Below are positions 7,068-43,257 of a stretch of DNA of 64,000 bases, in pieces. Every line of letters starts with the position of its first letter. Position 1 is the first letter of the stretch. Origin of the DNA: Deltaproteobacteria bacterium (GTDB lineage Bacteria; Desulfobacterota; Binatia; UTPRO1); the NCBI GenBank assembly GCA_020848745.1, contig JADLHM010000141.1:38599-102598 (forward strand). Direction: 5' to 3'. A model generated the notes under the pieces. That model saw nothing but the letters and a program-made list of their open reading frames with translations, ran no database searches and was not told where the DNA came from. A program made the position numbers and the translations under genes.

Positions 7068-7071
<4 letters not shown>
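6154..7071 (+). CDS. prmC: release factor glutamine N5-methyltransferase
   Basis: HemK/PrmC with [10 protein letters not shown] and NPPY motifs; start overlaps prfA stop (TGATG). Confidence 0.9.
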
Positions 7072-8320
<1,249 letters not shown>

Positions 8321-8324
<4 letters not shown>

Positions 8325-9664
8325 GCGCGGGACGCGACGTCCTGCTCGTGGTGCCGACGCGCGGCCGGGCCTTCGCGCGCCGGCTCGCGCTGCTCGAAGC
8401 GCGCGGCGAGGAGGCAACCGGCCGTGTCGAGCGGACCGTGCGGACGATCGTCGCCGACGTCCGCAAGCGCGGCGACGCGGCGCTCTTCGCGTACACGAAG
8501 CGTTTCGACGGCGTGGCGCTCGGGGCGCGCACCGTCGAGGTCCCGGCGGCGGAGCTCGCCGAGGCGGCGGCGTCGCTGCCGTCGCCGGTGCGGAGCGCGC
8601 TCGCGCTCGCGGCGCGCCGGGTGGCGGCGTTCCACCGCCGCCAGCGGCAGGGCTCGTGGAGCTTCCGTGACGCCGCCGGCGCGCGCCTCGGCCAGCAGGT
8701 GCGGCCGCTCGATCGCGTCGGAGTCTACGTGCCGGGCGGTACCGCGGCGTACCCGTCGTCGGTCCTGATGAACGTCATTCCGGCCAAGGTCGCGGGCGTC
8801 GGCGAGGTGATCGGCGTGACGCCGCCGGGGCGCGCCAGCGCCGAGGTGCTCGCGGCGGCGCACATCGCCGGCATCGACCGGCTCTTCCGGGTCGGCGGCG
8901 CCCAGGCGATCGCGGCGCTCGCCTACGGAACGCGCTCGATCCCGCGCGTCGACAAGATCTGCGGCCCCGGCAACGTGTTCGTCGCGACCGCGAAGCGGCT
9001 CGTCTTCGGTGCGGTCGACATCGACATGATCGCCGGGCCGAGCGAGGTGCTGATCGTCGCCGACGCCCGCGCGCGCGCCGACCTCGTCGCGGCCGACCTG
9101 CTCTCGCAGGCCGAGCACGACCCGCTCGCGGCGGCGATCCTCGTGACGCCGTCGGCCGCGCTCGCGGAGCGGGTGGCGCGCGCCCTCGCGGCGCAGCTCG
9201 GCGAGCTGCCGCGGCAGGCGATCGCGCGGCGCGCGCTCGCGCGCTACGGCACGGCCTTCGTGACCGCGACCCTCGCCGAGGCCGTGGAGCTCGCGAACCG
9301 CATCGCGCCCGAGCACCTCGAGCTCGCCGTCCGCCGTCCCGAGCGCTGGCTCCCGAAGGTGCGCCACGCCGGCGCGATCTTCCTCGGCGAGCACGCGCCG
9401 GAGCCCTTCGGAGACTACCTCGCCGGTCCGAACCACGTGCTGCCGACCGGCGGCAGCGCGCGCTTCTCGTCGCCGCTCGGCGTCTACGACTTCGTGAAGC
9501 GCTCGAGCGTGATCGCGGCGGGGCCGCGTACGATGGCGACGCTCGGCCCCGTGGTGGCGCGGCTCGCCCGACTCGAAGGGCTCGACGCACACGCCCGCGC
9601 GATCGAACGGCGGCTCCCGCGACGGCGTCGGGACGGCCGCATCACTCGCTCGCGACGATCGTGA
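8321..9664 (+). CDS. hisD: histidinol dehydrogenase
   Basis: HisD motifs (…[16 protein letters not shown]…, SQAEHD…); ATG overlaps murA stop (ATGA). Confidence 0.95.
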
Positions 9665-10049
9665 CGCTGATGCGGCGGTCGGTGCGGGGACCGTCGAACT
9701 CGCAGAAGAAGATGCCCTGCCAGGTCGAGAGGCCGAGCGCGCCGTCGATCACGGGGATCGTCTCCGACGGGCCGACGAGCCCGGCCTTCAGGTGCGCGTC
9801 GCCGTTGCCGTCCTGACGGTCGTGCAGCCAGACGCCGGGCGGAATCAATCGGCGCAGGAACCGCACGACGTCGGTCGGCACGCTCGCGTCCCAGTTCTCC
9901 TGGATCATGATCGCCGCCGTCGCGCCGTGGGCGTAGACGCAGCAGAGGCCGTTCGCGATCCCGCTCTCCGCGACCGCCGCGCGCACGCGCTCGGTCACGT
10001 CGACCAGGGTCTCGCGCTCGCCGGTCGCGAGCGCGATCAGCGAGCGCAT
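9642..10049 (-). CDS. YjbQ/UPF0047 family secondary thiamine-phosphate synthase-like protein
   Basis: 135-aa ORF with YjbQ-family conservation (…[21 protein letters not shown]…[15 protein letters not shown]…); convergent 23-nt overlap with hisD. Confidence 0.8.
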
Positions 10050-10106
10050 GGCGACAGCTTCGCGGCGGTGCTACGCGCCGACAGAGCCCACGACGAAGGA
10101 GTCCCG

Positions 10107-10716
10107 ATGAGCACGCTCGTGACGTACCGCACCGAGGACGGCATCGCCACCATCACGATGGACGACGGCAAACGGAACGCGCTCTCCGCCGCAATGCTCG
10201 CGGCGTTGAACGCGGCGGTCGACCGTGCGCAGACCGAGAAGGCGCCGGTGATCCTGACGGGGCGGCCGGAGACGTTCTCGGCCGGCTTCGACCTGAAGGT
10301 GATGATGGCGGGTGGGCGCGATCGCGATGGGCGCGTTTCTCCTGCTCGCCACCGACTACCGCCTCGGGGTCGCGGGGCCGTATCGCGTGGTCGCGAACGA
10401 GGTCGCGATCGGCATCACGATGCCGCACTTCGGGGTCGAGATCTGCCGGCAGCGGCTCGCGTCGGCGCACTTCCAGCGCGCGGTGATCCAGTCGGAGAGC
10501 TGCGCGCCGGCGGACGCGATCGCCGCCGGCTGGCTCGACCGCGTCGTTCCCGCCGCGGACCTCGAGACGGCGGCGCGGGCGAAGGCGGCGGAGCTCGCGA
10601 AGCTCGACGCCGGAGCCTATGCCGCGACCAAGCTCCGGGCGCGCGCTTCGGCGCTGCGGACCATCCAGGAGGCGATCGCCCGCGACGAGGACGACCGTCG
10701 TACGCTCTTTTGCTGA
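10107..10716 (+). pseudogene. enoyl-CoA hydratase/isomerase (crotonase) family gene, frameshifted and internally shortened
   Basis: N-terminal crotonase segment (…VILTGRPETFSAGFDLKVMMAGG) in frame 0 from ATG 10107, then C-terminal segment (AIAMGAFLLLATDYRLGVAGPYRVVANEVAIGITMPHFG…) in frame +1 from ~10312; stop in frame +1 at 10303; only ~5 aa where ~45 are expected. Confidence 0.6.
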
Positions 10717-10782
10717 GTCCGCCGCGCTCTCGCGGAGGACGCCGCGTTGCCGCCGAGCCGAGCCGTCTGCTACGTCGTCGCC

Positions 10783-11166
10783 ATGGACGTTGCCGCCGCG
10801 CTGAAAGGCGTTCGCGCCGCCGCCGAGACCCAGGCCGGCCTCCGAGCGCTGCTCCTCTTCGGGTCGCGGGCACGCGGCGACGCGGCAGCGACGGCGGATT
10901 GGGATTTCGGCTATCTCGGCGAGGACGGTTTCGATCCTTTGGACCTGCGGGCCGCTCTCGTCCGCCTCCTCGCGACCGACGACGACGACCTGGTCGACCT
11001 GTCGGCGGCGAGCGGTCTCTTGCGCTTTCGGGCCGCCCGTGACGGCGTCCTCGCGTGGGGCGACCCTGCGGAGGTCGCGCGGTTCCGCCTCGAAGCGGCA
11101 TCGTTCTGGTGCGAGGCGGAGCCGATCCTGCGCGCGGCCTACGACGCCGTGCTCGAGCGGCTGTGA
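10783..11166 (+). CDS. nucleotidyltransferase (MntA-like antitoxin of HepT/MntA type VII TA family)
   Basis: Minimal NTase motif LLFGSRARGDAAATADWDFGY; stop overlaps the next start (TGATG). Confidence 0.7.
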   Translation: MDVAAALKGVRAAAETQAGLRALLLFGSRARGDAAATADWDFGYLGEDGFDPLDLRAALVRLLATDDDDLVDLSAASGLLRFRAARDGVLAWGDPAEVARFRLEAASFWCEAEPILRAAYDAVLERL

Positions 11167-11374
11167 TGCCGGCTCTCGATCGCGAGATCCTGGCGGAGCG
11201 CGCCGCGGCGGTCGAACGCCACCTCACCCGCGTCGCCGAGCGGTTGCCGGCGCGCCCGGAGGACCTCGAGCCTGCCACCGACGCCTGGACATGCGCCGGA
11301 TCCACGACGCGGCGACGAACGGCTCGCCGGACCTCCGGACGTTCCTACGCCGCGTGCGAGACCTGCTCGGCTGA
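11166..11374 (+). pseudogene. probable HepT (DUF86/HEPN) toxin remnant, truncated and frameshifted
   Basis: Frame 0: MPALDREILAERAAAVERHLTRVAERLPARPEDLEPATDAW, then degenerate; frame +2 reads …LDMRRIHDAATNGSPDLRTFLRRVRDLLG* (weak Rx4HxY-like). Total <70 codons versus ~120 expected. Confidence 0.3.
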
Positions 11375-11460
11375 GCCGCCGTCGCCATAACGGGATTGCG
11401 TCTCCGAGGCGCACCTACGCCTTGCCGTCGTGACCTGAAGCCGCCATATTGAAAGCGGAA

Positions 11461-12645
11461 ATGGCGACGATAGGGAGATTATTCCAGCCGCCGAAAGGGC
11501 ACTTCTTCCTCTTCGGGCCCCGCGGCACCGGCAAATCGACCTGGCTCCGGCACGCGTTTCCCGACGCTCTGCGGATCGACCTCCTCGCGCCCGAGGTCGT
11601 GCGCGGCTACGTGGCGCGGCCGGAGCGGCTCCGCGAAGTGCTCGCCGCGCACCCGGACCGCCGCGTGATCGTCATCGACGAGGTCCAGCGCGTGCCGGCG
11701 CTGCTCGACGTCGTCCACGAGGAGATCGAAGCGCGCAAGGGGGCGCGGCGCTTCGTTCTGACGGGGTCGAGCGCGCGGAAGCTCCGGCGATCGGGGGTGA
11801 ATCTGCTCGCCGGTCGCGCCGTCCGTACGGCGCTGCATCCGTTCCTGGCGGCGGAGCTGGGGCCTGCCTTCACGCTCGATCGCGCGCTCGCGACCGGCCT
11901 CGTCCCGCTGGTCTGGGATGCCGCCGAGCCCGAGCGGACGCTCGATGGCTATCTGTCGCTGTACGTGCGCGAGGAAGTGCAGGCCGAAGGCATGGTCCGC
12001 GATCTCGGCGGGTTCGCGCGCTTTCTCGAAGCGATTAGCTTCGCGCACGCGTGCCCGCTCAACCTCGCGAACGTCGCCCGCGATTGCGACGTCAGCCGGA
12101 AGACCGCCGAAGGGTATCTCGCCATTCTCGAAGACCTGCTGCTCGCGTTTCAGGTGCCGATCTTCACCCGGCGCGCGAAACGCATCCTCCAGGCGCATCC
12201 GAAGTTCTTCTGGTTCGATGCCGGGGTCTATCGATCGGCGCGGCCTGCCGGACCGCTCGATCGCCCCGAGGAAATTGCAGGACCCGCGCTCGAGGGTCTC
12301 GTCGCCCAGCACCTGCGGGCCTGGATCGACTACACGGCGAACGACTGCCGGCTGTACTACTGGCGCACCAAGGCGGGGAGCGAGGTCGACCTCGTCGTCT
12401 ACGGGCGCGCGGGATTCTGGGCCTTCGAGGTCAAGAACACGCGCCGCGTGCAGGCGTCCGACCTCCGCGGCTTGCGCGCGTTCCGCGACGACCATCCCGC
12501 GGCCGAGCTCGCGCTGCTCCATCGCGGCGCCGAACGGCTCGCGATCGAGGGCATCCCCTGCATCCCGATCGCGGAGTTCCTGGCCGGCGTGACCCCCGGC
12601 CGCCCGCTCCCGTCGGTCGGAAGGCCGCGGCGGCCGCGCGCCTGA
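11461..12645 (+). CDS. AAA+ ATPase with DUF4143 (ATP-binding protein)
   Basis: Walker A GPRGTGKST, Walker B VIVIDEVQ, and C-terminal DUF4143-like region (…YYWRTKAGSEVDLVV…). Confidence 0.8.
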   Translation: MATIGRLFQPPKGHFFLFGPRGTGKSTWLRHAFPDALRIDLLAPEVVRGYVARPERLREVLAAHPDRRVIVIDEVQRVPALLDVVHEEIEARKGARRFVLTGSSARKLRRSGVNLLAGRAVRTALHPFLAAELGPAFTLDRALATGLVPLVWDAAEPERTLDGYLSLYVREEVQAEGMVRDLGGFARFLEAISFAHACPLNLANVARDCDVSRKTAEGYLAILEDLLLAFQVPIFTRRAKRILQAHPKFFWFDAGVYRSARPAGPLDRPEEIAGPALEGLVAQHLRAWIDYTANDCRLYYWRTKAGSEVDLVVYGRAGFWAFEVKNTRRVQASDLRGLRAFRDDHPAAELALLHRGAERLAIEGIPCIPIAEFLAGVTPGRPLPSVGRPRRPRA

Positions 12646-12980
12646 GGCGCGTCAGGTCCGTTACGTGCGGCGCCGCGTGCCCGCGACCTCGTCGATCTCG
12701 GTCCAGAGGTCGTCGAGATCCAGCACGAAACCCGGGCACCCGGGACCGCGCCCCTCGCCGGCTCCTGCGCCTCGGGCACGATGTCGAGGCGTTTCGTAAC
12801 GTCACGAGCTTCGACCACCTCGCGCGCGTGCGATCCGGATCTGCTCCTCGAGGCACGGCAGCAGATCCGCCTGATCGATCGCCGTCTCGAGCTGCCCGAT
12901 CAGATCACGCACCCGGCCGACCAAAGACGTACCATCGTCCGCCGAACTTGGTGAGGACGGGCGCGAGGGCCCGGAGCAGG

Positions 12981-13274
12981 TCAGCGGCGGTGGGGTCGGT
13001 CGACACGACGGAGCGCCTTTCCCACCCGGACGTGGGTTTCGAGGTCGGCCTCGCGGTCGGCCGCGGTGGGCCAGGTCGGCTGCTGGCGGGCGACCTGGCG
13101 TCGGAGCGCGTCGCCCACCTGAAAGCACCACGCGACGCCCCGGCGCCGGCGCTCCTCGAGCCACTGCTCGGTCTTCGCGGCTTCCAGGGTTTCCCAGTCG
13201 CGTCGCGCGAAGCGCGCGATGTCCTCCGGGCGCACGAGGGCGAGCCTATACGTTCCGTTCGCCAGCTCAAGCAA
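12981..13274 (-). CDS. hypothetical protein or gene fragment
   Basis: 97-aa ORF with protein-like composition (MLELANGTYRLALVRPEDIARFARRDWETLEAAKTEQWLEERRRRG…); neighbouring out-of-frame ORFs (12802..13164, 12399..12818) suggest a decayed gene spread over three frames. Confidence 0.2.
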   Translation of the reverse strand: MLELANGTYRLALVRPEDIARFARRDWETLEAAKTEQWLEERRRRGVAWCFQVGDALRRQVARQQPTWPTAADREADLETHVRVGKALRRVDRPHRR

Positions 13275-13392
13275 GGGTCAGGCGACGGGAGGCGTCCGTG
13301 CGCATGGAGGCCGACATCCGAGACCCCGTCGCTGCCCTTCGACCATTGCGGCGACCGCGGTTGCGCTCGTGACGGCGGTTGCGGGTAGCGGA

Positions 13393-13719
13393 TCATCCGC
13401 GCGACGGCCGGGCTCGTCGTGCCTGCGTTCGTCCTGCCCGCTTCCCGGATCGGCCTCCGGTCGGCCGCGCCGCGGCGGCCGCAAAGTGCGCCCTCACCTC
13501 GTCCAGGGAATAGGTTCGCGGATCCTTCCGGCTCGCCTCGATCATGCGCCAGAAGCGAGGGTTGGACATGAGCATCACGTCCTCCAGGTCGCGCCCTTCC
13601 ACACCGATCACGATGGCGCATGGCCGACCGTTGCGGGTGATGAGGATCCGTTCCCGTTGGGCATCTTCGAGGGTGGCGCTGAGGCCGCTCTTCGCTTCGC
13701 GAATCGCCAGCACTCTCAT
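13393..13719 (-). CDS. Phd/YefM family type II antitoxin
   Basis: MRVLAIREAKSGLSATLEDAQRERILITRNGRPCAIVIGVEGRDLEDVML…; ATG 13719 overlaps the stop of the upstream toxin gene (ATGA). Confidence 0.8.
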   Translation of the reverse strand: MRVLAIREAKSGLSATLEDAQRERILITRNGRPCAIVIGVEGRDLEDVMLMSNPRFWRMIEASRKDPRTYSLDEVRAHFAAAAARPTGGRSGKRAGRTQARRARPSRG

Positions 13720-14012
13720 AGGATCTCCTTTGTGGTCCGCCGACCCTTTCGGAGTACCGCCCGAACGATCACCAGTCTGGTCGAGCTGTCGACGTCGTAG
13801 ATCACGCGGAATTCCCCGACGCGAAGTTGCCACACCGGCTGAACGTGCTCGAACGGCGGCACCACCCCGGGCAACTGCTTGCGACGCGGCGTCTCTTGCT
13901 GGGGATCGTTGCGAAGGTGCGTCATGATCTCGTCGAGGATTCGGTTGCGGTCGTACGAGCGGATCGTCGCCAGATGATCCACAGCCAACTGCGCGATCCG
14001 AACGCCGAACAT
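13716..14012 (-). CDS. ParE/RelE family type II toxin
   Basis: 98-aa ORF with the RelE/ParE C-terminal core (…WQLRVGEFRVIYDVDSSTRLVIVRAVLRKG…); coordinates from the ORF track. Confidence 0.75.
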   Translation of the reverse strand: MFGVRIAQLAVDHLATIRSYDRNRILDEIMTHLRNDPQQETPRRKQLPGVVPPFEHVQPVWQLRVGEFRVIYDVDSSTRLVIVRAVLRKGRRTTKEIL

Positions 14013-14127
14013 CAGAGACTACAACTGTAGTCACACAGCCCCGCGGCGCGCAAGCCCGCTCGTTCATATCTTCAACAAGAGCTTCTCTGGCCATGGTTGG
14101 CCCGGGGTCGATTTCGATTGACGGGCC

Positions 14128-14215
14128 TATTTCCAACACCGCCTTTCGTGCCGTCCCCGTTGCGAAGAGTGCATCGAAGGAGGATCTCCGAGCCATTCGA
14201 ACCCTGCTCGCGATG
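14128..14215 (+). repeat. degenerate duplicate of the 5' UTR/RBS/start region of the DGR target gene
   Basis: cctttcgtgccgtccccgtt..cgaaggaggatctccgagccattcgaaccctgc vs 14415-14500 gttttcgtgccgtctcccgtt..cgaaggaggatctccgATGcgcgttccagttcgaaaccttgc; third weaker copy gtcgatagaaggaacctcatcga at ~14314-14338. Confidence 0.5.
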
Positions 14216-14380
14216 ACCGTGTCCGGACGATTTCGGCGGACTACAGCGCATCGTCGAGATCGTACCGGTTGAGGCATCGTGCCTGCCGTCCTCCGTTCGC
14301 CGCATGCCGAGTCCTCGAACGAAGTCGATAGAAGGAACCTCATCGAGGTCGGCCCGGCGGAAACGCTCGCCATTTTTCGA

Positions 14381-14407
14381 TTGACCGGGGGGGGGGGGGG
14401 GTAGGCT
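14381..14407 (+). promoter_or_regulatory. candidate sigma70-type promoter with homopolymeric G15 spacer (possible phase-variable promoter of the DGR target gene)
   Basis: TTGACC (14381-86), G x15 (14387-14401), TAGGCT (14402-07); ~67 nt before ATG 14474; AGGAGG RBS at 14461-66. Confidence 0.4.
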
Positions 14408-14473
14408 ATCGCCAAAGCCGTTTTCGTGCCGTCTCCCGTTCCGTAGATTCCGTCGATCGAAGGAGGATCTCCG

Positions 14474-15424
14474 ATGCGCGTTCCAGTTCGAAACCTTGCG
14501 CTGGCGGCGCTCGCCGTCGTCGCACTTTCCGCCAGCGCTGCGCGGGCCGCGACCCCAGCCCAGAAGTGCCAGGCCGGTAAGAACAAGGCCGCCGGGAAGT
14601 ACGCCGCCTGCCGCCACGGCGCCGAGGCCAAGCTCGCCACCACCGGCGACGGCGCGGCCTATGCAACGGCCATCGGCAAGTGCACGACCAAATATGGAGC
14701 CGCCTGGCAGAAGCTCGAAGCCAACGCCGGCGGCGCCTGCCCGAGCAACGGCGACGAGACCGCGATCGGCACCGTCGTCGACGGCTGCACGACCAACATC
14801 GCGACCGCCGTCGGGGGCGGGGTGCTGACCGATTGTCCGGCGGACCTGGCGGCGTGTCTCGCGGCTCCGCAAGGGCAGCGCCTGAAGACGGAGCAGTACG
14901 CCTGCTACGACGCCGGGGGCGTGGTGATCCCCTGTGCCGGCACCGGGCAGGACGGCGAGCTCCAGAAGGGGTTGGCGCGGAGCTATACCGACAACGGCGA
15001 CGGTACGATCACCGACGACCGGACGGGCCTCATGTGGGAGAAGCTGTCGGACGACGGCAGTCTCCACGACAAGGACAATTACTACACGTGGACGAACGCC
15101 TTCGCGGTGAAGATCGCGGGCTTGAACGCGGGTGGAGGCTTCGCCGGCCATACGGACTGGCGGTTGCCCAACGTCAACGAGCTCCAGAGCCTCGTGAGCT
15201 ATGGGGCGGTGAACCCGTCCGTAAGCGCTGCGTTCAATACGGCGTGCGCCCCGGCGTGTACCGTGACGACCTGTAGTTGTACCCAGTCGAACTTCTATTG
15301 GTCGGCTACGACGTATCAGGACAGTCCGTCGCTCGCGTGGCTCGTGTTCTTCTTCGACGGCGACGTGTACGCGGACGGTAAGCCCGACAACTACTATGTT
15401 CGCGGAGTGCGTGGCGGCTCGTGA
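14474..15424 (+). CDS. DGR target (variable) protein: secreted Cys-rich protein with C-terminal DUF1566/Lcl-C-type domain
   Basis: Sec signal MRVPVRNLALAALAVVALSASAARA; C-terminal motifs GLMWEK, WRLPNVNEL, YWSATTY, YYVRGVRGGS typical of DUF1566; last 143 nt form the VR. Confidence 0.9.
   Translation: MRVPVRNLALAALAVVALSASAARAATPAQKCQAGKNKAAGKYAACRHGAEAKLATTGDGAAYATAIGKCTTKYGAAWQKLEANAGGACPSNGDETAIGTVVDGCTTNIATAVGGGVLTDCPADLAACLAAPQGQRLKTEQYACYDAGGVVIPCAGTGQDGELQKGLARSYTDNGDGTITDDRTGLMWEKLSDDGSLHDKDNYYTWTNAFAVKIAGLNAGGGFAGHTDWRLPNVNELQSLVSYGAVNPSVSAAFNTACAPACTVTTCSCTQSNFYWSATTYQDSPSLAWLVFFFDGDVYADGKPDNYYVRGVRGGS
15282..15424 (+). repeat. DGR variable region (VR) at 3' end of target gene
   Basis: 143 nt matching the TR at 16063-16205 with 21 mismatches, all at TR adenines; the last ~30 nt (tatgttcgcggagtgcgtggcgg) are identical to the TR. 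Confidence 0.85.
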
Positions 15425-15471
15425 TCGATCATTGGATCATTTGAAGGTTTGACCATTTGATTTCGGGGGGT

Positions 15472-15493
15472 CTGGGGGGCGGGAGCCCCCCAG
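15472..15493 (+). promoter_or_regulatory. GC-rich stem-loop 48 nt downstream of VR (DGR target-recognition hairpin candidate)
   Basis: ctggggggc-ggga-gccccccag: perfect 9-bp stem with 4-nt loop. Confidence 0.55.
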
Positions 15494-15508
15494 GGAAAGC
15501 GGCTAGCA

Positions 15509-15907
15509 ATGGCGCAGACCGAGCACCTGCCGATCTACAAAGCGGCATACGACTTCTGTCTCTGGTGCGAGCAAGTCGTCCAAGGCTTCTCGCGCTACCA
15601 CAAGTACGCGCTCGGCGCCGACCTCCGCGAGGGCGCGCGCCGTGTCGTGAAGCTCGTCGTGCGGGCCAACGCACGGCGCGACAAGCGGCCGGTGTTGCTC
15701 GAGGTGCGCGAGGAAGTCGAGCAGCTGAAAGTGCTCTTGCGGCTCGGGCACGACGTCAAGGCATTTCCCAATTTCAACAGCTTCGAGCACGCCATCACCA
15801 CCGTCACCGGCATCGCCAAGCAGAACGAAGGTTGGTTGAAGAGTCAGGGCCATGGCCAGAATCGGCGGGCAATGCCGGCAGGGCTCGCCGCGCCGAGCGC
15901 GCCATGA
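15509..15907 (+). CDS. avd: DGR accessory variability determinant (Avd-like four-helix-bundle protein)
   Basis: 132-aa protein (…LPIYKAAYDFCLWCEQVVQGFSRYHKYALGADLREGARRVVKLVVRANARRDK…) resembling four-helix-bundle/23S-rRNA-IVS-family proteins; positioned between VR and TR. Confidence 0.8.
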   Translation: MAQTEHLPIYKAAYDFCLWCEQVVQGFSRYHKYALGADLREGARRVVKLVVRANARRDKRPVLLEVREEVEQLKVLLRLGHDVKAFPNFNSFEHAITTVTGIAKQNEGWLKSQGHGQNRRAMPAGLAAPSAP

Positions 15908-16062
15908 TCACGAGGTCCCGCTCCCGCCCGTCGCCGCGTCCTGGTGCCGGGCGAACGCCAAGGCCCTGTAGCGGGGCGGCGGCAGAAGGGCGTCTTCCCG
16001 CGCTGCCGCACGGCCAGGCGTCCGGGTCCGGCGGCAGCAGGCCGGGAACAAGCGGCGCGGGC

Positions 16063-16205
16063 GCCAGTCGAACAACTATTGGTCGGCTACGACGTATCAG
16101 AACAATCCGTCGAACGCGTGGAACGTGAACTTCAACGACGGCAACGTGAACGCGAACAATAAGACCAACAACAACTATGTTCGCGGAGTGCGTGGCGGAT
16201 CGTGA
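16063..16205 (+). repeat. DGR template repeat (TR)
   Basis: Encodes QSNNYWSATTYQNNPSNAWNVNFNDGNVNANNKTNNNYVRGVRGGS; AAC/AAT-rich; every VR/TR difference falls on an A here. Confidence 0.85.
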
Positions 16206-16214
16206 TCGGCCCTG

Positions 16215-16255
16215 CGGGGAGGGAGCACGGGCTCCCTCCCCGGTTCGTTTTTCTG
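16215..16255 (+). terminator. stem-loop plus T-tract immediately after TR (intrinsic terminator-like / TR-RNA 3' structure)
   Basis: cggggagggagc-acgg-gctccctccccg (12-bp perfect stem) followed by gttcgtttttctg. Confidence 0.5.
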
Positions 16256-16311
16256 TGCGCGTATCACACGACGATCAGGCGGTGGCTCGGCGCTGGCCGT
16301 GACGGTGTTGC

Positions 16312-17964
16312 GTGGACGATCTCTACGGCTTCGCGAATCTGTACCGCTGCTACCGGCGCTGTCGCCGGCACAAGCGCGGCACCGTCAATGCGCTCGCGTT
16401 CGAGATCGACGCCGAGGCGAAGCTGCTCGATTTGCAGCGGGCGCTCCGCGACCACAGCTACGTGCCCGGACGTTCGGTCTGCTTCGTCACCGAGGGGCCG
16501 AAGCCGCGCGAGGTTTTCGCGGCGGACTTCCGCGATCGCATCGTCCACCACCTGCTGGTCGAGCGGCAGGAGCGCGTCTTCGAGCCGCGCTTCATCCACG
16601 ACTCGTACGCCTGCCGTCCGGGCAAGGGCACGCTCGCCGCGAGCGATCGGCTCATGCGCTTCCTCCGCCAGCTCACCGCCAACGGCCGGCGGCCCGGCTG
16701 GGCCCTGAAGCTCGACGTCGCGAGCTTCTTCGCGTCGATCCACAAGGCGACGCTCTACGAGCTGATCGCGGCGCGCGTCCGCGACCCGGAGCTCCGCTGG
16801 CTGACGTGGACGATCCTCTTCCACGACCCGACGCGCGATTATCGCTTCCGCTCGCTCGGCGGGCACGTGCCCGGTCCGGAGACTCCCGGCTACCCGGTGC
16901 CGCCGGCGAAGAGCCTCTTTGGCGCCGGCAACGCCCGCGGCCTCCCGATCGGGAACCTCACGAGCCAGTTCTGGGCCAACGTCTATCTCGATGCGCTCGA
17001 TCAGTTCGTGAAGCGCGAGCTCCGCTGCCGCCGGTACGTCCGCTACGTCGACGACCTCGTGCTGCTGGCCGACGATCCGGAGCGGCTCCGGGGCTGGCAT
17101 GCGAAGATCGCGGGGTTCCTTGCCGAACGCTTGCACCTCGCCCTGCGGGCCGAGGCGGCGGAGCCGCGGCCGGTGGGCGCGGGCGTCATGTTCGTCGGGT
17201 GGCGGACCTGGTGGAGCCACCGCGTGCCGCGGCGCCAGACGCTCGGTAACCTCGCGCGCCGGCTCGCCGGCTTCGAGCGTGTCCTTTGTGAGCCGGCGCT
17301 GGCGGGAGCGGCGCGCGCCATCGACCTCGAGCGGCGGGTGCGTCCCGCGGCGCCGCGCGCGGGCCGGCCGGTACGCAGGGTGTCGTCGCAGTTGCAGGCG
17401 ACGCTTGCGGCCTACGGCGGGCACCTCCGTCACGGCGCCGCCTACGGTCTCTGGCTCCGGATGTGGGAGCGCCATGCGGCCTGGCTGCCGCTAGTGTGTC
17501 GCCGCACGGGGTGGCGCGCCGGCGTACGGTGGTCCGCCGCGCCGCGTGCGGTCCCGGCGCGCGGTTCACGCGCGCGACCGCTCGCCCGCGCCTATCGCCA
17601 TCTGCTGCGGGCGGCGGGCGACGACGTGCTCCTCTTTCTCCAGGTCGGGCGCTACGTCGAGCTCTACGGGCCGCAGCGCGTGCGCGGGGAACGCCTCCTC
17701 GGGCTCCGGGCCGTGCACCTGCCGCGCGCGGGGTTCGGGCTCGCGGCGGGGTTCCCGCGGAGCTGTCTCCGCGCGTTCGTCCGCCGCGCGCTCGCTTCAG
17801 GCTGGTCGGTGATCCTGGCGGTGGAGCGGCGTTCCGACCGTGCCCCGTGGTCCTTCGAACGTACGCCGGCCAGGCTCTGGGTGTCGCCATACGCGCGGTC
17901 GGCCTCAGTGGGCCAAGCGCAGCCGGCGGTGTGGGTCAGCCTCGAGGTGGCCACGGCTTCTTGA
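16312..17964 (+). CDS. DGR reverse transcriptase
   Basis: GTG start; RT motifs including LPIGNLTSQFWANVYL (IGxxxSQ, DGR-diagnostic) and RYVRYVDDLVLLADD (YxDD box); 550 aa with an Arg-rich C-terminal ~200 aa of uncertain validity. Confidence 0.9.
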   Translation: MDDLYGFANLYRCYRRCRRHKRGTVNALAFEIDAEAKLLDLQRALRDHSYVPGRSVCFVTEGPKPREVFAADFRDRIVHHLLVERQERVFEPRFIHDSYACRPGKGTLAASDRLMRFLRQLTANGRRPGWALKLDVASFFASIHKATLYELIAARVRDPELRWLTWTILFHDPTRDYRFRSLGGHVPGPETPGYPVPPAKSLFGAGNARGLPIGNLTSQFWANVYLDALDQFVKRELRCRRYVRYVDDLVLLADDPERLRGWHAKIAGFLAERLHLALRAEAAEPRPVGAGVMFVGWRTWWSHRVPRRQTLGNLARRLAGFERVLCEPALAGAARAIDLERRVRPAAPRAGRPVRRVSSQLQATLAAYGGHLRHGAAYGLWLRMWERHAAWLPLVCRRTGWRAGVRWSAAPRAVPARGSRARPLARAYRHLLRAAGDDVLLFLQVGRYVELYGPQRVRGERLLGLRAVHLPRAGFGLAAGFPRSCLRAFVRRALASGWSVILAVERRSDRAPWSFERTPARLWVSPYARSASVGQAQPAVWVSLEVATAS

Positions 17965-18079
17965 GGGCGGTGCCACGCCTGCGGAAAACTCTCGGGCACA
18001 CGGGACCCTTCGTCGTCGCCCGCATCACCCGCAGGGACCGCACTTGACCGACATCCGTACAGCCTGTACAGCATGGCCC

Positions 18080-18334
18080 GTGTCGCGAACCCATCGCAAA
18101 GGCGTCGAAGAGGCCCGCAACCAGCTGCCTGCGCTGCTCGCGGAGGCTGAGAAAGGGCGCGTCACGATCATCACGCGCCATGGTCGATCGGTTGCCGCGA
18201 TAGTCCCGGTGGCGCGCGCCATGGGTGTGCCACGCCAAAGATCGCTTGTCGGGTTGACGGGGTCCGGCAAAGGCTTGTGGGGAAAGGGCAGCACCAAGGC
18301 CCTGCGCCGCCTGCGTGACGAGTGGAGCCGCTAG
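18080..18334 (+). CDS. VapB/Phd-like type II antitoxin
   Basis: …THRKGVEEARNQLPALLAEAEKGRVTIITRHGRSVAAIVPVARA…; putative GTG start; 13-nt overlap with vapC; palindrome GTACAGcCTGTAC (18057-18069) overlapping a putative -10. Confidence 0.55.
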   Translation: MSRTHRKGVEEARNQLPALLAEAEKGRVTIITRHGRSVAAIVPVARAMGVPRQRSLVGLTGSGKGLWGKGSTKALRRLRDEWSR

Positions 18335-18747
18335 ACCTTTCGGCCCTGCCGCACGGAGGGCTGGTGCTCGTCGATACGGCCCCGATCGTCTACGTCCTCG
18401 AAGCGCATCCGCGGCTCGCCTCTCGGTTCCAACCCCTATTCGATCTCCAGGCGGCGGGGGACATTCTCTTCGCGGTGACGACGACGACCGTTGCGGAGGT
18501 CCTGACGGGACCATTGGCCGCTGGCGAGGAGGCGCTGGCACGACGCTATCGCGCCGTGATGGAGTCGTGGCAGGTGATTGACCTGACCACCGATCTCGCG
18601 GAGAGCGCAGCGCGTTTCCGGGCGGTCTTGAAGCTGAAGCTCCCCGATGCGATTCAGGTCGCGAGCGCGATCGCAGTCAACGCCGATGCGCTAGTGACGC
18701 ACGATCGCGACTTTTCGCGCGTAAAGGCGGTGACGATTCTGAGCTGA
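18322..18747 (+). CDS. vapC: PIN-domain toxin VapC
   Basis: 141-aa PIN domain (…GLVLVDTAPIVYVLEA…, …DAIQVASAIAVNADALVTHDRDF…). Confidence 0.8.
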   Translation: MEPLDLSALPHGGLVLVDTAPIVYVLEAHPRLASRFQPLFDLQAAGDILFAVTTTTVAEVLTGPLAAGEEALARRYRAVMESWQVIDLTTDLAESAARFRAVLKLKLPDAIQVASAIAVNADALVTHDRDFSRVKAVTILS

Positions 18748-18894
18748 CGGGCCGGCGACCCATTCGCTCTCGGTCGAGGCCGCGAGCACGATCCGCGCAC
18801 GGGCGCGCCCCGCGAGCTGCTTCGCGATGCCGCTCGTGGACCGGGTCGAATGACCGTTCGCGGCGCCCCGAGGCCTCGGCTATGATGCCGCGTC

Positions 18895-19557
18895 ATGGCG
18901 CGCGCACGCACGGTGAAGCGGGTCGGGGTCCTTCGCGGCACGGGACGGTCGGCGAACGTCGGGGCGGGGCGCTCGGCGACGGTCTCGCGCAAGACCAAGG
19001 AGACCGCAATCGAGCTCTCCCTGAACGTCGACGGCTCGGGCCGCTACGACATCCAGACCGGCGTTCCGTTCCTGAACCACATGCTCGAGCTCTTCACCCG
19101 CCACGGCTTCTTCGACCTCGGCATCCGGGCGACGGGCGACGTCGAGGTCGACGACCACCACACGGTCGAGGACGTCGGTCTTACGCTCGGGCAGGCGTTT
19201 CGCCGGGCGCTCGGCGGCAAGGAGGGTATCCGGCGCTTCGGGGAAGCGACGGTGCCGCTCGACGAGGCGCTGATCCAGGTGGTGGTCGATCTGAGCGGCC
19301 GGCCGTACCTCGCCTGCGGCGTCAAGACCAAGCAGAGCCGCATCGGCACCTTCGACGTGGAGCTCGTCCACGACTTCCTGCTGGCGTTCGTGAACGAGAG
19401 CGGGATGAACCTGCACGTCCGCATGCTCGCGGGACGGAACCCGCATCACATCGTCGAAGCGACCTTCAAAGGCATGGCGCGTGCGCTCGACGCCGCGACC
19501 CAGCGCGATCCGCGGGTCCGGGGCGTGCTCTCGACCAAGGGATCGCTTTCCGGATGA
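18895..19557 (+). CDS. hisB: imidazoleglycerol-phosphate dehydratase
   Basis: IGPD motifs (…RKTKETAIELSLNVDG…, HHTVEDVGLTLG…, HIVEATFKGMARAL…). Confidence 0.95.
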   Translation: MARARTVKRVGVLRGTGRSANVGAGRSATVSRKTKETAIELSLNVDGSGRYDIQTGVPFLNHMLELFTRHGFFDLGIRATGDVEVDDHHTVEDVGLTLGQAFRRALGGKEGIRRFGEATVPLDEALIQVVVDLSGRPYLACGVKTKQSRIGTFDVELVHDFLLAFVNESGMNLHVRMLAGRNPHHIVEATFKGMARALDAATQRDPRVRGVLSTKGSLSG

Positions 19558-20165
19558 ACGGCTGGCCCATCGTCGGGTGGGCGACGCTCGTGGTGGCGGC
19601 GATCGTCGCCGTGATCCTCGGCACCGTCGGCGCCGCTGAGGCGGGGATCCGGATGGTGCTGCGTGCGACCGCGCGTACGTCGGCGGTGTTCTTCACGCTC
19701 GCCTTCGCGGCGTCGGCGCTCCGCCGCCGCTGGCCGAACGCCGCGACGGGCTGGCTCCTGCGCAATCGCCGGCAGCTCGGGGTGTCGTTCGCGGTGTCGC
19801 ACTTCGTGCACCTCCTCGCGATCTTCGCGCTCGTGGGGTGGACGTGGGCCGGGTTTCGCGCCGCCGTGCCGGCGGGAACCCTCGCCGTCGGCGGGCTTGC
19901 CTATACGTTCCTCGTGCTCATGACGCTCACGTCCTTCGACGCGCCGGCCGCTCGGCTCGGGCCGCGCGCGTGGAGGCGTCTGCACACGACCGGCGCCTAC
20001 TATCTGTGGTTCGTCTTCGCGCAGAATTACTTCGTGGCGGCCACGTTTTCGGCCTTCTACTGGCCGTACGCCGCTCTCGTCGCCGGCGCGATGGCGCTCC
20101 GCTGGTTGCCGGCGCCGCGCGCCGCCCGGGCGCCCGTCGACCTGGCGCCGCGGCGGCTGGCCTGA
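19554..20165 (+). CDS. hypothetical integral membrane protein embedded in the his operon
   Basis: 203 aa with ~5 predicted TM helices; ATG overlaps hisB stop (ATGA); ends 5 nt before hisH. Confidence 0.6.
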   Translation: MNGWPIVGWATLVVAAIVAVILGTVGAAEAGIRMVLRATARTSAVFFTLAFAASALRRRWPNAATGWLLRNRRQLGVSFAVSHFVHLLAIFALVGWTWAGFRAAVPAGTLAVGGLAYTFLVLMTLTSFDAPAARLGPRAWRRLHTTGAYYLWFVFAQNYFVAATFSAFYWPYAALVAGAMALRWLPAPRAARAPVDLAPRRLA

Positions 20166-20170
20166 CCGCC

Positions 20171-20818
20171 ATGACCATCGCCGTCATCGACTACGAGATG
20201 GGGAACCTCCGGAGCGTGCAGAAGGCGCTCGAGCGCGTCGGCGCGGACGCCGTCATCACGCGCGATCCGGACGTCATCATGGGCGCGGCGGCGGCGGTGC
20301 TGCCGGGCGTCGGCGCGTTCGGGGCCTGCATGGAGAGCCTCCGGCGTCACGGGCTCGTCGAGCCGGTCAAGATCTTCGCCGCGAGCGGCCGGCCCTTCCT
20401 CGGCATCTGCGTCGGCATGCAGATCCTCTTCGAGGAGAGCGAGGAGTTCGGCCCCGTGCGCGGCCTCGGCATCCTGCCGGGCAGGATCGTGCGCTTCACG
20501 CCCGACCCCGACGGCAAGCGCAAGGTGCCGCAGATGGGGTGGAACGCGCTCCGCATCGTGAAGCGCGCGCCGCACCTCGCCGGCGTGAAGGACGGCGCCC
20601 AGGTCTACTTCGTGCATTCGTACTATCCGGAGCCGGCCGATCCCGAGCTCGTCGCGACGACGACCGACTACGGCTGCACGTTCGCGTCGTCGGTCTGGCA
20701 GGACAACGTCTTCGCGACCCAGTTCCACCCCGAGAAGAGCCAGGCGGTCGGGCTCCGTGTCCTCGCCAACTTCGCCGAGATCGCGGGCGAGACCGGCGCC
20801 GCCGCCGCGGCGCGCTGA
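20171..20818 (+). CDS. hisH: imidazole glycerol phosphate synthase, glutamine amidotransferase subunit
   Basis: MTIAVIDYEMGNLRSVQKALE…GICVGMQILFE…HSYY…FHPEKS (class I GATase triad). Confidence 0.95.
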   Translation: MTIAVIDYEMGNLRSVQKALERVGADAVITRDPDVIMGAAAAVLPGVGAFGACMESLRRHGLVEPVKIFAASGRPFLGICVGMQILFEESEEFGPVRGLGILPGRIVRFTPDPDGKRKVPQMGWNALRIVKRAPHLAGVKDGAQVYFVHSYYPEPADPELVATTTDYGCTFASSVWQDNVFATQFHPEKSQAVGLRVLANFAEIAGETGAAAAAR

Positions 20819-20828
20819 GGTCCCGGAC

Positions 20829-21562
20829 ATGCTGGTGATTCCCGCGATCGACCTGAAGGGCGGACGGTGCGTGCGCCTCGTCCAGGGCGACATGGCGCGT
20901 GAGACGGTCTACGCCGAGGACCCGGTCGCCGTCGCGCGCGGCTTCGAGGCCGCGGGCGCCGAATGGATCCACGTCGTCGACCTCGACGGCGCCGTCAGCG
21001 GCACGCCCGTCAACGAGGAGGCGATCGCCGCCGTGTGTCGCGGCGTCCGAGCCAAGGTGGAAGTCGGCGGCGGCATCCGCGACCTCGCGACGCTCGAGCG
21101 CGCGCTCGGCGCGGGGGCGGGGCGGGTCGTGCTCGGGACGGCGGCGCTCGAGGACCCGACGTTCTTCGCGACCGCGTGTCGCCGTCATCCCGGCCGAATC
21201 CTCGCCGGCATCGACGCCCGCAAGGGCAAGGTCGCGGTCGCGGGCTGGACCAAGGACAGCGCGACCGACGCGGTGGGGCTCGCGGTCGCGGTGCAGCGTG
21301 CGGGCGCTACCGCGATCGTCTTCACCGACATCGCCCGCGACGGGACGGGGGAGGGCGTGAACGCGCCCGCCGTCGACGCGATCGCCGACGCGGTCGACAT
21401 TCCGGTGATCGCTTCCGGGGGCGTGGCATCGCTCGACGACCTCCGCCGCTTGCGCGCCTTGGCGCGCCGCAACCTCGAGGCCGTGATCGTCGGCCGCGCC
21501 ATCTACACCGGCGCCGTCGACCTCGCGACGGCGCTGCGGGTCGGCCGCGGCGAGGAACCCTG

Positions 21563-21563
<1 letters not shown>
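20829..21563 (+). CDS. hisA: 1-(5-phosphoribosyl)-5-[(5-phosphoribosylamino)methylideneamino]imidazole-4-carboxamide isomerase
   Basis: [22 protein letters not shown]… typical HisA. Confidence 0.95.
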
Positions 21564-22339
<776 letters not shown>

Positions 22340-40826: not shown

Positions 40827-41515
40827 CGCGCAAGACCCCGGCCATCGGACCCGAGACCCCGGAAGCCCGGCGGACGCGCGCCCGCAAGATCGACCGCGCG
40901 CTCGCCGACGCCTACCCCGACGCCTGGTGCGCCCTACGCCACGACGATGCCTGGCAGCTGCTCGTCGCGACCATCCTTTCGGCGCAGTGCACCGACGAGC
41001 GCGTCAACATGGTCACGCCGACGCTCTTCGCGCGCTATCCGACGCCGCGCGCGCTCGCCGACGCCGACCCGCGCGAGCTCGAGCGGATCATCCATTCGAC
41101 CGGATTCTTCCGGCAGAAGGCGAAGTCGCTGCGGGGGGTCGCGGCGGCCACGGCCGGTGAGTTCGGAGGCGAGCTGCCGCGCGACCTCGAGACCCTGGTC
41201 ACCCTGCCGGGCATCGGTCGTAAGACCGCCAACGTGGTGCTCGGGACCGCCTACGGCGTGCCGTCGATCGTCGTCGACACCCACGTACGCCGGGTCGCGA
41301 ACCGCCTCGGACTCACCGGCGAGGACGACCCCACCAAGATCGAGATGGACCTGCGAGCCCTCGTGCCTGCCGCGTCATGGACCCGCTTCACGCACCGGCT
41401 GATCCATCACGGCCGGCGGATCTGCCACGCCCGCAAGCCGCGCTGCCCGGACTGCCCGCTCCTCGCCATCTGCCCCCGGATCGGCGTCACCGATGCCGTG
41501 AAATCGCCGACATAG
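40823..41515 (+). CDS. nth: endonuclease III
   Basis: HhH-GPD (LPGIGRKTANVVL) and 4Fe-4S FCL motif CHARKPRCPDCPLLAIC; ATG overlaps glpD stop. Confidence 0.95.
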   Translation: MTRKTPAIGPETPEARRTRARKIDRALADAYPDAWCALRHDDAWQLLVATILSAQCTDERVNMVTPTLFARYPTPRALADADPRELERIIHSTGFFRQKAKSLRGVAAATAGEFGGELPRDLETLVTLPGIGRKTANVVLGTAYGVPSIVVDTHVRRVANRLGLTGEDDPTKIEMDLRALVPAASWTRFTHRLIHHGRRICHARKPRCPDCPLLAICPRIGVTDAVKSPT

Positions 41516-41595
41516 GGGAAGCGTCCTACCCGGGATCGCGCGCGCTCTCGGCTTCGCCATATTCGGATCCGCATCACATGATTGCCAGAAAAGTA

Positions 41596-41623
41596 TTGAC
41601 TATCGCGGGGTTAGAGATATAAC
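41596..41623 (+). promoter_or_regulatory. sigma70-like promoter in unusually AT-rich intergenic region
   Basis: TTGACT-16 nt-TATAAC upstream of the kinase-like gene at 41651/41666. Confidence 0.4.
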
Positions 41624-41665
41624 CGAACGGATCTCAACGTTCCTCAGCGGGTGGCGGGCGTACAT

Positions 41666-42700
41666 ATGGCGGCGTACACGAATCTCGATAGGCGGCAATT
41701 GGCGGAGCTGGTCGAGGAGTTCGGTCTCGGCAAGTTGCAGGCTGCCAACGGCAACGGTGGCGGGACGGACGGCAATTGTCGCCTCGACACCGCCAAAGGT
41801 CGCTTCTGGCTCCGCATCGACGAAGAGCGGAGCGAGATGGAGGTGAAGCGGGAGATCGACCTCCTGCTCTATCTCCGCAAGCACGGCTTTCCGTGTCCGC
41901 AGCTCATGATCGACCGCAAGGGCCGCCAGTACCACGAGCTCGGCGGCAAGTGCATCTCGCTCTTCAAGTACATCGACGGCCACAAGCGCGAAGGCGCGAG
42001 CCTCACGCTGACGCAGATCGAGAACGCGGGCCGCGTGCTCGCCGACCTGCACGTCATCGGCAAGGGCTACAAGAAGGGCGTCGACAACCGCTTCAACTTC
42101 GAGCGCGTGGCCGACGTCTACCAGGAGGTGCGCGACCGCCTGCCGGCGTACTTCAAGAAGATCACGCGCACGCTCGACGAGGAGGTCGGCTACCTCGAGC
42201 ACTATCTCGAGTGCAAGCTGCCGAAGGGCATCATCCACGGCGACCTCTACCTCGACAACATCCTGTTCCGCGGCGAGAAGGTCGTCGGCGTGCTCGACTT
42301 CGAGACCGCCTCCCGCGGCAAGTACATCTTCGACCTCGCGACCGCCGTGAACGCGCTCTGCTACGACGGCGAGCGCTACGACCTGAAGCGATTCGAGGTG
42401 CTGATCGGCGGCTACGAGTCGCTCCGTACGTTGTCGCTCGCGGAGTGGGACGCGTTCCCGAACGAGCTCCGCTTCTCGGCCCTCCGCTTCACCGTGAACC
42501 GCCTGCGCGCCTTCTACCTGAATCCCGTCGATGAGGCGCATCGCATCAACCGCGACTTCCGCGAGTTCTACGATCGACTCATGATCCTCCGCCGCGAGCG
42601 CGAGGGCGGGATGGAAGGTCTCTTGATGGCGATGGCGACGGGCTACGACTACCGGAAGTACCAGAAGGTCCGCGCCATCGAGAAGAAAGGCAAGTCTTGA
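41666..42700 (+). CDS. phosphotransferase (APH/homoserine kinase type II-like) family protein
   Basis: Brenner/APH motif [13 protein letters not shown] and DFE; noticeably lower GC than its neighbours; alternative upstream GTG at 41651. Confidence 0.7.
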
Positions 42701-43257
42701 GCAGTGCGGACCTCGTCCGCGGGCTGCTGCGCGCGATCGGCGAAGACCCCGGGCGCGAAGGACTGCTGAAAACGCCGGATCGCGTCGCCCGCGCCCTCCA
42801 GTTCCTCACGAAAGGCTACCACGAGGATCCCTCCGCGATCCTGAACTCGGCGCTCTTCAATGAAGAGTACTCCGAGATGATCGTGTTGAAGGATCTCGAC
42901 TTCTTCTCGCTCTGCGAGCACCACATGCTGCCGTTCTTCGGAAAGGCGCACGTCGCCTACATCCCGAGCAAGAAGATCCTCGGCTTGAGCAAGCTCGCCC
43001 GTCTCTTCGAGGTGTTCGCCCGCCGCTTGCAGGTCCAGGAGCGGCTGACGACCCAGGTCGCGACCTCGCTCATGGAGGCCATCGAGCCACAGGGCGTCGG
43101 CGTCGTCGTGGAGGCCGAGCACCTGTGCATGCGGATGCGCGGCGTCGAGAAGCAGAACTCCGTCGTGGTGACGAGCTGCATGCTCGGAACGTTCCGCACC
43201 CGGCAGGAGACGCGCGAGGAGTTCATGACGCTGATCCGCAGCCGGAACGGCCGGTAG
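42697..43257 (+). CDS. folE: GTP cyclohydrolase I
   Basis: …[23 protein letters not shown]… canonical FolE; TTG start overlapping the upstream stop. Confidence 0.9.

Follow-up and report, generated by a model that had tools for sequence, protein, structure and literature searches.

The hisD–hisB junction of a Binatia-like bacterium: a probable hotspot of accessory genes filled in layers

In the stretch of DNA analysed here, 9.2 kb of accessory DNA separates hisD from hisB, two neighbours in the histidine biosynthetic operon. The stretch comprises 64,000 nucleotides of contig JADLHM010000141.1 (positions 38,599 to 102,598, forward strand) from the Deltaproteobacteria bacterium assembly GCA_020848745.1, a metagenome-assembled genome (MAG) placed among the Binatia by the GTDB; it is referred to below as the window. 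A sequence-only reading of the window had taken the interval for a single insertion with the character of a defence and variation island. Comparison with related loci leads us to favour, at a probability of roughly 0.72, a different reading, in which this Binatia-like lineage has a variable hotspot between hisD and hisB that was filled in layers, with ~8.1 kb of window-specific DNA now standing where close relatives carry an ATP-dependent DNA ligase gene. The earlier proposal of an accessory insertion thus survives insofar as the interval appears derived and varies among close relatives, but it does not extend to a single 9.2-kb unit, as the leftmost genes are shared with two relatives that lack the remainder.

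Results

The interval and its ancestral state

Genes were called by combining third-position GC content (GC3) frame analysis with selected open reading frames (ORFs) and domain searches, in a window of ~71% GC. As the sequence-only reading had placed them, hisD (8321–9664, + strand; Pfam Histidinol_dh, E=2.9e-167, and translation) ends at 9664 and hisB (18895–19557, +; IGPD, E=7e-63) begins at 18895, followed by hisH, hisA and hisF, and no aminotransferase gene that could represent hisC was found between hisD and hisB. Relatives were taken from HisD-related loci in species-representative genomes and metagenomes, comprising Candidatus Binatia and ‘Deltaproteobacteria’ MAGs; two of them, L170 and L171, were found through a search for YjbQ homologues and context look-ups. 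Among loci with 62–72% HisD identity to the window, all 11 that reach hisB have only 24–204 bp between the two genes, and direct adjacency is also seen in many more distant loci; given this spacing in the 11 loci, the interval appears to be a derived state. Since none of the adjacent-type loci carries hisC between hisD and hisB either, the lack of hisC at this position is likely to be ancestral and unrelated to the insertion.

The flanks of the junction are conserved in relatives, with prmC, murA and hisD on one side and hisB, hisH, hisA, hisF and trxB on the other. Between them, the junction is open in every locus at 75% HisD identity or above that extends far enough, with gaps of 0.37 kb in L083, 1.76 kb in L040, 2.1 kb in L002, 3.4 kb in L171, 5.3 kb in L170 and 9.2 kb in the window; L082, L001 and L085 have other genes after hisD and no hisB within the 1–1.4 kb left on their contigs. 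L040 (86% HisD identity) has a ligase gene only, in the order hisD, ligase (−), hisB. The order in L171 (Binatia MAG GCA_039917665.1) is hisD, yjbQ (−), marR (−), an intact enoyl-CoA hydratase gene (ECH, a crotonase; +), ATP-dependent DNA ligase (−) and hisB, and L170 (ERZ25039463 contig_113839) repeats it without marR and with a 263-aa ORF and an IS110-type Transposase_20 gene between ECH and ligase, so that insertion sequences also use this site. In L170 hisD and murA are fragmented, probably through long-read frameshift errors. The ligases of L040, L170 and L171 are orthologous, with 78–95% amino acid identity. Elsewhere the interval holds a TIR-domain gene (L001), a 530-aa secreted protein (L002), or a DUF1330 gene and another ORF (L085), and no cross-homology was detected among the fillers of the interval apart from that of the orthologous ligases; the contents of L001, L002 and L085 are likewise unrelated to the cargo of the window.

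The closest relative, L083 (91% HisD identity), is collinear with the window for more than 20 kb and has 149 bp in place of window positions 9823–18848 (9,026 bp). Its yjbQ is truncated to the 3′ 59 codons (95% amino acid identity), which cannot be a primitive state, so this near-empty site has arisen by deletion. The 149 bp show no homology to the window, and the cargo lost from L083 was therefore probably different from that of the window; a resemblance of an ORF tail within them to the C-terminus of a DUF4143 ATPase was seen by eye only and is speculation. Conserved flanks with an uninterrupted ancestral arrangement, together with differing content and a near-empty site in close relatives, are the features that define a chromosomal hotspot.

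Two layers of different age

The left ~1.1 kb of the interval (9616–10716), consisting of yjbQ and a crotonase gene, is common to the window, L170 and L171 and in part to L083. Because the window, L170 and L171 all hold both genes, we regard this portion as an older layer, and its composition is host-like, the tetranucleotide distance from the remainder of the window being z −0.7 to 0.4 across 9.6–12.5 kb. The yjbQ gene (UPF0047; 9642–10049, −) is intact and convergent with hisD, which it overlaps by 23 nt (PF01894, E=2.5e-38; TIGR00149, 132.8 bits), and it has a GC3 of 0.95 (0.93–0.95 for yjbQ and ECH together). The last ~16 codons of hisD, from ~9616, are unlike those of relatives that lack yjbQ, and nucleotide homology of the window hisD to L040, L001, L002, L082, L084 and L085 ends at 9600–9621. 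In the L040 genome, a yjbQ gene (80% identical) lies at a different locus, L169 (contig_1259, 1781547–1797954), beside Endo_dU and an aldehyde dehydrogenase gene; since L040 lacks yjbQ at the his locus, the gene has either changed position in this clade or is present there in paralogous copies.

The crotonase gene of the window (10107–10716, +) is a decayed pseudogene. Its N-terminal part (10107–10301) and C-terminal part (10315–10716) lie in different frames, in which Pfam searches and frame translations recover positions 2–71 and 99–220 of the ECH_1 profile. Relative to intact orthologues (tblastn with the intact ECH of L171), residues 66–100 are missing, corresponding to ~35 codons or a net deletion of ~92 nt, and a frameshift is present.

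The window aligns with L170 and L171 from hisD through yjbQ and ECH as far as 10678–10710, at the stop codon of ECH, and homology returns at 18847–18849, 46 nt before the hisB ATG; the DNA specific to the window is therefore 10717–18848 (~8.1 kb), a mosaic that lies in place of the ligase gene (−), including its start region, of L040, L170 and L171. A search with the relatives’ ligases found no remnant of the gene in the window. A single match was rejected, as it lies antisense to the start of hisB and arises only because the ORF in L040 had been extended spuriously at its N-terminus. The composition is deviant only at ~12.5–17 kb (tetranucleotide z 3.2–6.0, GC 0.64–0.67), and z falls to 1.3–1.6 across 15.5–19 kb; the island-like composition that had been ascribed to the entire 9.6–18.9 kb is thus real for the middle (z up to 6, GC 0.64) but not for 9.6–12.5 kb, whose k-mer signature cannot be told apart from that of the rest of the window. 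Genes of the 8.1-kb block have GC3 values of 0.83–0.89. A second compositional outlier in the window, at 41000–43500 (GC 0.65, tetranucleotide z 2.4–3.2), contains an APH-family phosphotransferase gene (41651–42700) and GTP cyclohydrolase I (42697–43257), ordinary genes with no mobility signature.

Modules of the window-specific block

Domain searches recovered each of the principal genes that had been recognised in the interval from the sequence: YjbQ, the frameshifted crotonase, MntA, a DUF4143 ATPase, a ParE-Phd pair, a diversity-generating retroelement (DGR) and a Phd-VapC pair. The block opens with an MntA-type nucleotidyltransferase (10747–11166, +; Polbeta, E=1.1e-8), which reaches 60.2 bits against a cutoff of 60 in the MntA_antitoxin model NF047752. 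MntA is a type VII antitoxin family. The partner toxin, HepT, would be expected in the following ~280 nt (11167–11448, +), where a remnant had been proposed; no verifiable gene lies there, and Pfam, NCBIfam and tblastn with the HepT of a related locus, L163, gave no HepT homology, the N-terminal resemblance being visible by eye only. With MntA just at its cutoff and no HepT signal downstream, the two partners that make up a type VII toxin-antitoxin (TA) module are not both present, and MntA is apparently orphaned.

Downstream lies an AAA_14 and DUF4143 ATPase gene (11449–12645, +, with a probable ATG at 11461; DUF4143, E=2.6e-29; AAA_14, E=2.8e-17). It matches the PADLOC candidate family PDC-S01 over nearly its full length (E=2e-53). 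Homologues with up to 82% identity occur singly in unrelated neighbourhoods, the close ones (80–81%) among metabolic genes, and the gene is a stand-alone accessory gene and a candidate for a role in defence. PDC-S01 denotes a single-gene AAA_14/DUF4143 ATPase system; the match to it is strong and the close homologues are likewise stand-alone, but it is a candidate system only, with no known mechanism.

The next segment, 12646–13392, had been read as multi-frame debris. At 12762–12845 (+), 28 codons match the C-terminal half of bAvd, the accessory protein of the DGR: 58 nt are 79% identical to 15733–15790 within the intact bAvd gene, and tblastn aligns the fragment with residues 76–103 of Avd (57% identity, E=2e-5), the differences including synonymous ones. 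The fragment also matches the Avd of a related locus, L165, and is what remains of a second copy of Avd or of the DGR. The related locus L163 holds two bAvd genes. The description as debris does not hold for 12981–13274 (−), which is an intact small gene (GC3 0.86) of an uncharacterised family of ~84 aa; 350 cluster representatives match it at E<=1e-3, its conserved RDW/W/PxWP/R/D/H columns are intact, and no Pfam family matched it. Rare fusions within this family, one member to an Xre helix-turn-helix domain and one to an NTP_transf_2 domain, are a hint that it may possibly serve as a TA-like partner. A weak nucleotidyltransferase-like trace occurs upstream of the gene in another frame (13235–13345).

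Two gene pairs appear, by domain content and gene overlap, to be complete type II TA pairs. In the first, a ParE toxin gene (13716–14012, −; ParE_toxin, E=2.9e-7, with a weak RelE_StbE match) precedes a Phd/YefM antitoxin gene (13393–13719, −; PhdYeFM, E=4.8e-9), which it overlaps by 4 nt; a 460-nt spacer separates this pair from the DGR. The second comprises a Phd-type antitoxin gene (about 18080–18334, +; PhdYeFM, E=3.9e-8) and a gene for a PIN-domain VapC toxin (18322–18747, +; PIN, E=4.2e-13), with an overlap of 13 nt and a palindrome, GTACAGCCTGTAC, before the antitoxin gene.

The diversity-generating retroelement

Between the two pairs lies what appears to be a complete, cellular DGR of a known type. 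A template repeat (TR) and variable repeat (VR) of 145 nt share 86% identity, and 21/21 differences fall where TR has an adenine, which is replaced by T in 10 cases, by G in 7 and by C in 4; 20 of the differences are at codon positions 1 or 2. VR (15283–15427) forms the 3′ end of the target gene (14474–15424, +) and ends at its stop codon; the N-terminus of the target resembles a signal peptide, and its C-terminal part is an Lcl_C (DUF1566) domain (residues 177–313, E=2.7e-28). The bAvd accessory gene follows (15509–15907, +; PF22296, E=8.5e-14; DivGenRetAVD model NF033474, E=2e-14), and then TR (16064–16208, +), behind which come a GC-rich hairpin of 12 bp and a run of T (16215–16242). The reverse transcriptase (RT) gene (16312–17964, +; RVT_1, E=5e-12) encodes 550 aa with IGNLTSQ and YVDD motifs, and its product has an in-frame C-terminal extension resembling MutS domain I (residues ~423–503; MutS_I, E=3.9e-5, 24.3 bits against a cutoff of 20.6). 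An independent assembly, L162, contains an identical ORF of 550 aa. The adenine-confined repeat pair, the position of VR at the 3′ end of the target and the DGR-type RT and Avd beside TR are those by which a DGR is recognised.

RT homologues are numerous, with 3,197 scored at E<=1e-20; among 120 listed, many are 510–550 aa long and have both domains, including some from Binatia. Viral RTs reach at most 44–56% identity and lack the MutS-like part, whereas cellular homologues are 55–77% identical over the full length. Three inspected loci with related RTs (55–61% identity; L163, L165 and L167) share with the window only the C-terminal part of the target, avd, TR and RT.

In the window (17964–18747) and in all three of these loci, the RT gene is immediately followed by two genes that form a TA-like pair, of a different family each time: Phd/PIN in the window, MntA/HepT in L163 (9666–10288), a small ORF and a PIN gene in L165 (2708–3390), and DUF6932 with a small ORF in L167 (10012–10697). 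The window pair has no detectable homology to the L165 pair, and the idea that the DGR and VapBC were inherited together was rejected on that ground.

The conserved block upstream of hisB

The right-hand limit of the interval is identical in L083, L040, L170, L171 and the window, all of which share by alignment a conserved block of 46 nt (18849–18894, +). In it, TATGAT (TAYRAT) stands 8 nt ahead of the hisB ATG and a Shine-Dalgarno sequence is lacking, and in L170, L171 and L040 the block makes up the intergenic region between the divergent ligase and hisB genes. L086 has only a GGCTACAATG motif, placed some 20 nt farther upstream; in L002 the DNA preceding the hisB coding region showed no detectable conservation, and relatives in which hisD and hisB are tightly coupled have a GGAGG site instead. 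We suppose that the block carries the hisB promoter, and its layout suggests that the hisB transcript may be leaderless or have a very short leader.

Absence of mobility signatures

No recombinase, transposase or integrase domain was found by Pfam, NCBIfam or PADLOC in the ORFs with coding signal at 9642–18747, the short and decayed ORFs there having been scanned less than exhaustively. No tRNA or tmRNA gene occurs in the 64-kb window. No direct repeat of 7 nt or more marks the border pair 10717/18848, and at 9616/18809 there is only a 7-mer, consistent with chance; an exact 16-nt repeat at 10023/18657 was dismissed because it lies inside yjbQ and vapC rather than at the borders, with ~0.2 such matches estimated by chance. 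These searches agree with the lack of an integrase, tRNA genes and direct repeats at the borders that had been noticed from the sequence, and flanking repeats sought at either border pair as possible traces of insertion did not appear. No plasmid DNA matched the 8.1-kb block, phage DNA matches were limited to the RT core (3–5% of the block), and Rfam returned nothing across 9400–19200 except one sub-threshold chance match. An island bounded by an integrase would have a recombinase, a tRNA gene or attachment site with repeats, and a deviant composition throughout; neither of the first two was found by these searches, and the interval deviates only at 12.5–17 kb.

PADLOC returned only candidate families in the interval, PDC-S01 (strong) and PDC-S09 (weak), and no validated defence system; the RT best matches a generic RT model and not a DRT class. 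The label of a defence island is plausible in view of the TA modules, the PDC-S01 ATPase and the DGR, but PADLOC recognised none but candidate families and the DGR is predicted to diversify a secreted Lcl_C-domain protein.

Neighbouring genes

On the left flank, prmC ends at 7071 and is followed by murA (7068–8324); on the right, hisH ends at 20818 and is followed by hisA (20757–21563), hisF (about 21560–22339) and a convergent trxB-like gene. An ORF of ~200 aa (about 19560–20165, +) with good coding signal and no Pfam match lies between hisB and hisH. It is common to L083, L040 and probably L171 (a 203-aa ORF at the same position, also with no Pfam match), it is absent from L086, L002 and L170, and with it the his cluster is interrupted a second time, by an older event.

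Discussion

We propose that the interval was assembled in at least two steps. In genomes at or above about 85% HisD identity, an older layer would have brought a ligase gene (−), yjbQ (−) and the crotonase gene (+) into the hisD–hisB junction, leaving hisB behind its own short conserved upstream block and divergent from the ligase gene. The window-specific layer (10717–18848) would then have taken the place of the ligase as a mosaic of small self-contained accessory modules, namely the orphan MntA, the DUF4143 ATPase, the small orphan gene with the bAvd fragment, ParE-Phd, the complete DGR and Phd-VapC, with the crotonase gene decaying after the layering. These modules are likely to have separate histories, because relatives of the DGR and homologues of the ATPase occur apart and beside other neighbours. 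Entry and loss most likely proceeded piece by piece, by homologous recombination through the conserved his flanks, together with illegitimate recombination or deletion, and not through a site-specific integrase. Expression of hisB to hisF would be independent of read-through from hisD, starting from the proximal block or arising by read-through of the co-oriented VapBC pair; a hisB promoter within the 46-nt block could explain why insertions upstream are tolerated. Judging from their families, the TA pairs may serve as addiction or stress modules and may make the segment harder to lose, and the DGR would rewrite the final ~48 codons for the secreted Lcl_C-domain protein through mutagenic retrohoming directed at adenines.

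Other origins of the interval have to be weighed against this. That a single mobile island of ~9.2 kb was inserted once between hisD and hisB would account for the absence of the interval from adjacent-type relatives, for its richness in TA modules alongside a PADLOC candidate ATPase and a DGR, and for the deviant composition of its centre. We consider it very unlikely, as yjbQ and ECH are found in L170 and L171 with a ligase instead of the rest, the left part (9.6–12.5 kb) is host-like in composition, no integrase, tRNA gene or repeats were found, relatives of the DGR and ATPase occur separately among other neighbours, and the whole has no plasmid or phage counterpart. A remnant of a prophage or integrative element, in which the DGR and TA genes were kept while structural and integration genes decayed, is less probable still. 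Many DGRs are phage-borne, and decayed pieces are indeed present (the bAvd fragment, the broken crotonase gene and the orphan MntA); against this, the ORFs scanned contain no phage structural, terminase or integrase domain, the best viral RTs are more distant than the full-length cellular homologues and lack the MutS-like part, and the phage DNA matches amount to a small fraction of the block, in the RT core. A similarly slight chance attaches to the opposite possibility, also raised by the sequence-only reading, that dispersed his genes are the natural state of this lineage and that the interval is ordinary chromosomal DNA passed on by vertical descent. The lack of hisG, hisC and hisIE from the cluster even in relatives, the native-looking codon usage of yjbQ and ECH (GC3 0.93–0.95) and the extra ~200-aa gene between hisB and hisH in several relatives would fit such a history, but the genes are not dispersed at this junction, where hisD and hisB are adjacent in 11/11 loci at 62–72% identity, and the content differs in each close relative, one of which has a near-empty site.

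Chimerism of the MAG contig, with part of the 8.1 kb coming from another organism or locus, would be in keeping with the origin of the sequence in a metagenome-assembled genome, with the fall of GC to 0.64 in the middle of the block and with the lack of independent coverage of the junctions at 10716/10717 and 18848/18849. Independent assemblies exactly match the window at 8138–10220 (L081, JGI sample 3300009873), covering hisD, yjbQ and the start of ECH, and at 16130–18269 (L162, Logan SRR11294019), covering TR, RT and the start of the antitoxin gene. Exact look-ups with hisB gave no match, and those with YjbQ gave only the L081 contig. In addition, the GC3 of the block genes (0.83–0.89) still fits a very GC-rich host, DGRs of this type also occur in related Binatia genomes, with a small ORF and then a PIN gene behind them (L165), and both junctions lie exactly at gene ends and not within genes, so that an assembly artefact of this kind seems to us a poor explanation. 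The layered hotspot accordingly remains the reading that we prefer, and several points weigh against it. The order of events was reconstructed from a handful of MAG contigs with no species tree, and L040, with a ligase but no yjbQ or ECH at the site and with yjbQ elsewhere, allows other orders. The two junctions occur in no independent assembly, which leaves room for a chimeric contig. A strict scan found no sigma-70 promoter in the 46-nt block, and present activity of the TA modules and the DGR is predicted only.

Chromosomal integration hotspots, or ‘genomic islets’, are variable regions between conserved core genes that are known from the comparative genomics of horizontal gene transfer. 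The hisD–hisB junction shares with them its conserved core flanks, the non-homologous cargo of each relative, a closest relative that is nearly empty and an enrichment in genes of TA and defence type; it differs in lying inside a biosynthetic operon, in its layering, where older yjbQ, ECH and ligase genes have been partly overwritten, and in having no integrase or tRNA gene. We conclude that the region is an ordinary chromosomal hotspot with known types of module and not a new kind of element. The modules themselves depart from their usual forms in minor ways. Like type II and type VII TA modules, they are small and have the same domain content and overlapping pairs, with an operator-like palindrome before the antitoxin gene in the VapB position. 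Unlike most type II modules, however, ParE precedes Phd, which is the reverse of the usual order, VapC is paired with a Phd-type antitoxin, and MntA lacks the verifiable HepT partner of type VII modules.

The closest described counterparts of the DGR are those of Architecture D, which combine avd with MSL (MutS-like) genes, an accessory class already described for DGRs and found alongside avd (Wu et al. 2018, Nucleic Acids Res 46:11, PMC5758913). Shared with these are the order of target, avd, TR and RT, a MutS-like module accompanying avd, a C-terminal variable lectin-type domain in the target and adenine-specific differences between TR and VR. The MSL of Architecture D is a separate protein of 112–283 aa (PMC5758913), whereas in the window the MutS-like module is fused in frame to the RT. 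Such fusions are common in metagenomes, and the DGR of the window is chromosomal and cellular, not phage-borne.

The recurrence of TA-like genes behind the RT raises the idea that cellular DGRs with an RT::MutS-like fusion are functionally coupled to the pair directly downstream. We regard such coupling as unlikely; it rests on the window and three related loci, a sample too small to call. Were it true, and the recurrence due to more than shared residence in hotspots, the TA pair could stabilise or gate the retroelement, and the hisD–hisB junction of this Binatia clade would offer a natural series for the gain and loss of such units.

In conclusion, comparison of related loci points to the hisD–hisB junction of these bacteria as a hotspot in which a recent mosaic of accessory modules overlies an older set of genes. 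The value of this finding is descriptive and it leaves current understanding unchanged. It illustrates how a first island call made from gene content may lump recent cargo together with older genes conserved in the lineage, and it gives a defined chromosomal setting to an apparently complete cellular DGR whose RT is fused to a MutS-like domain. For the little-studied Binatia, it provides a documented case of an operon junction serving as a hotspot of gene turnover with no site-specific recombination machinery, together with a natural series of states: adjacent genes, ligase only, yjbQ-ECH-ligase, DGR/TA mosaic and deletion.

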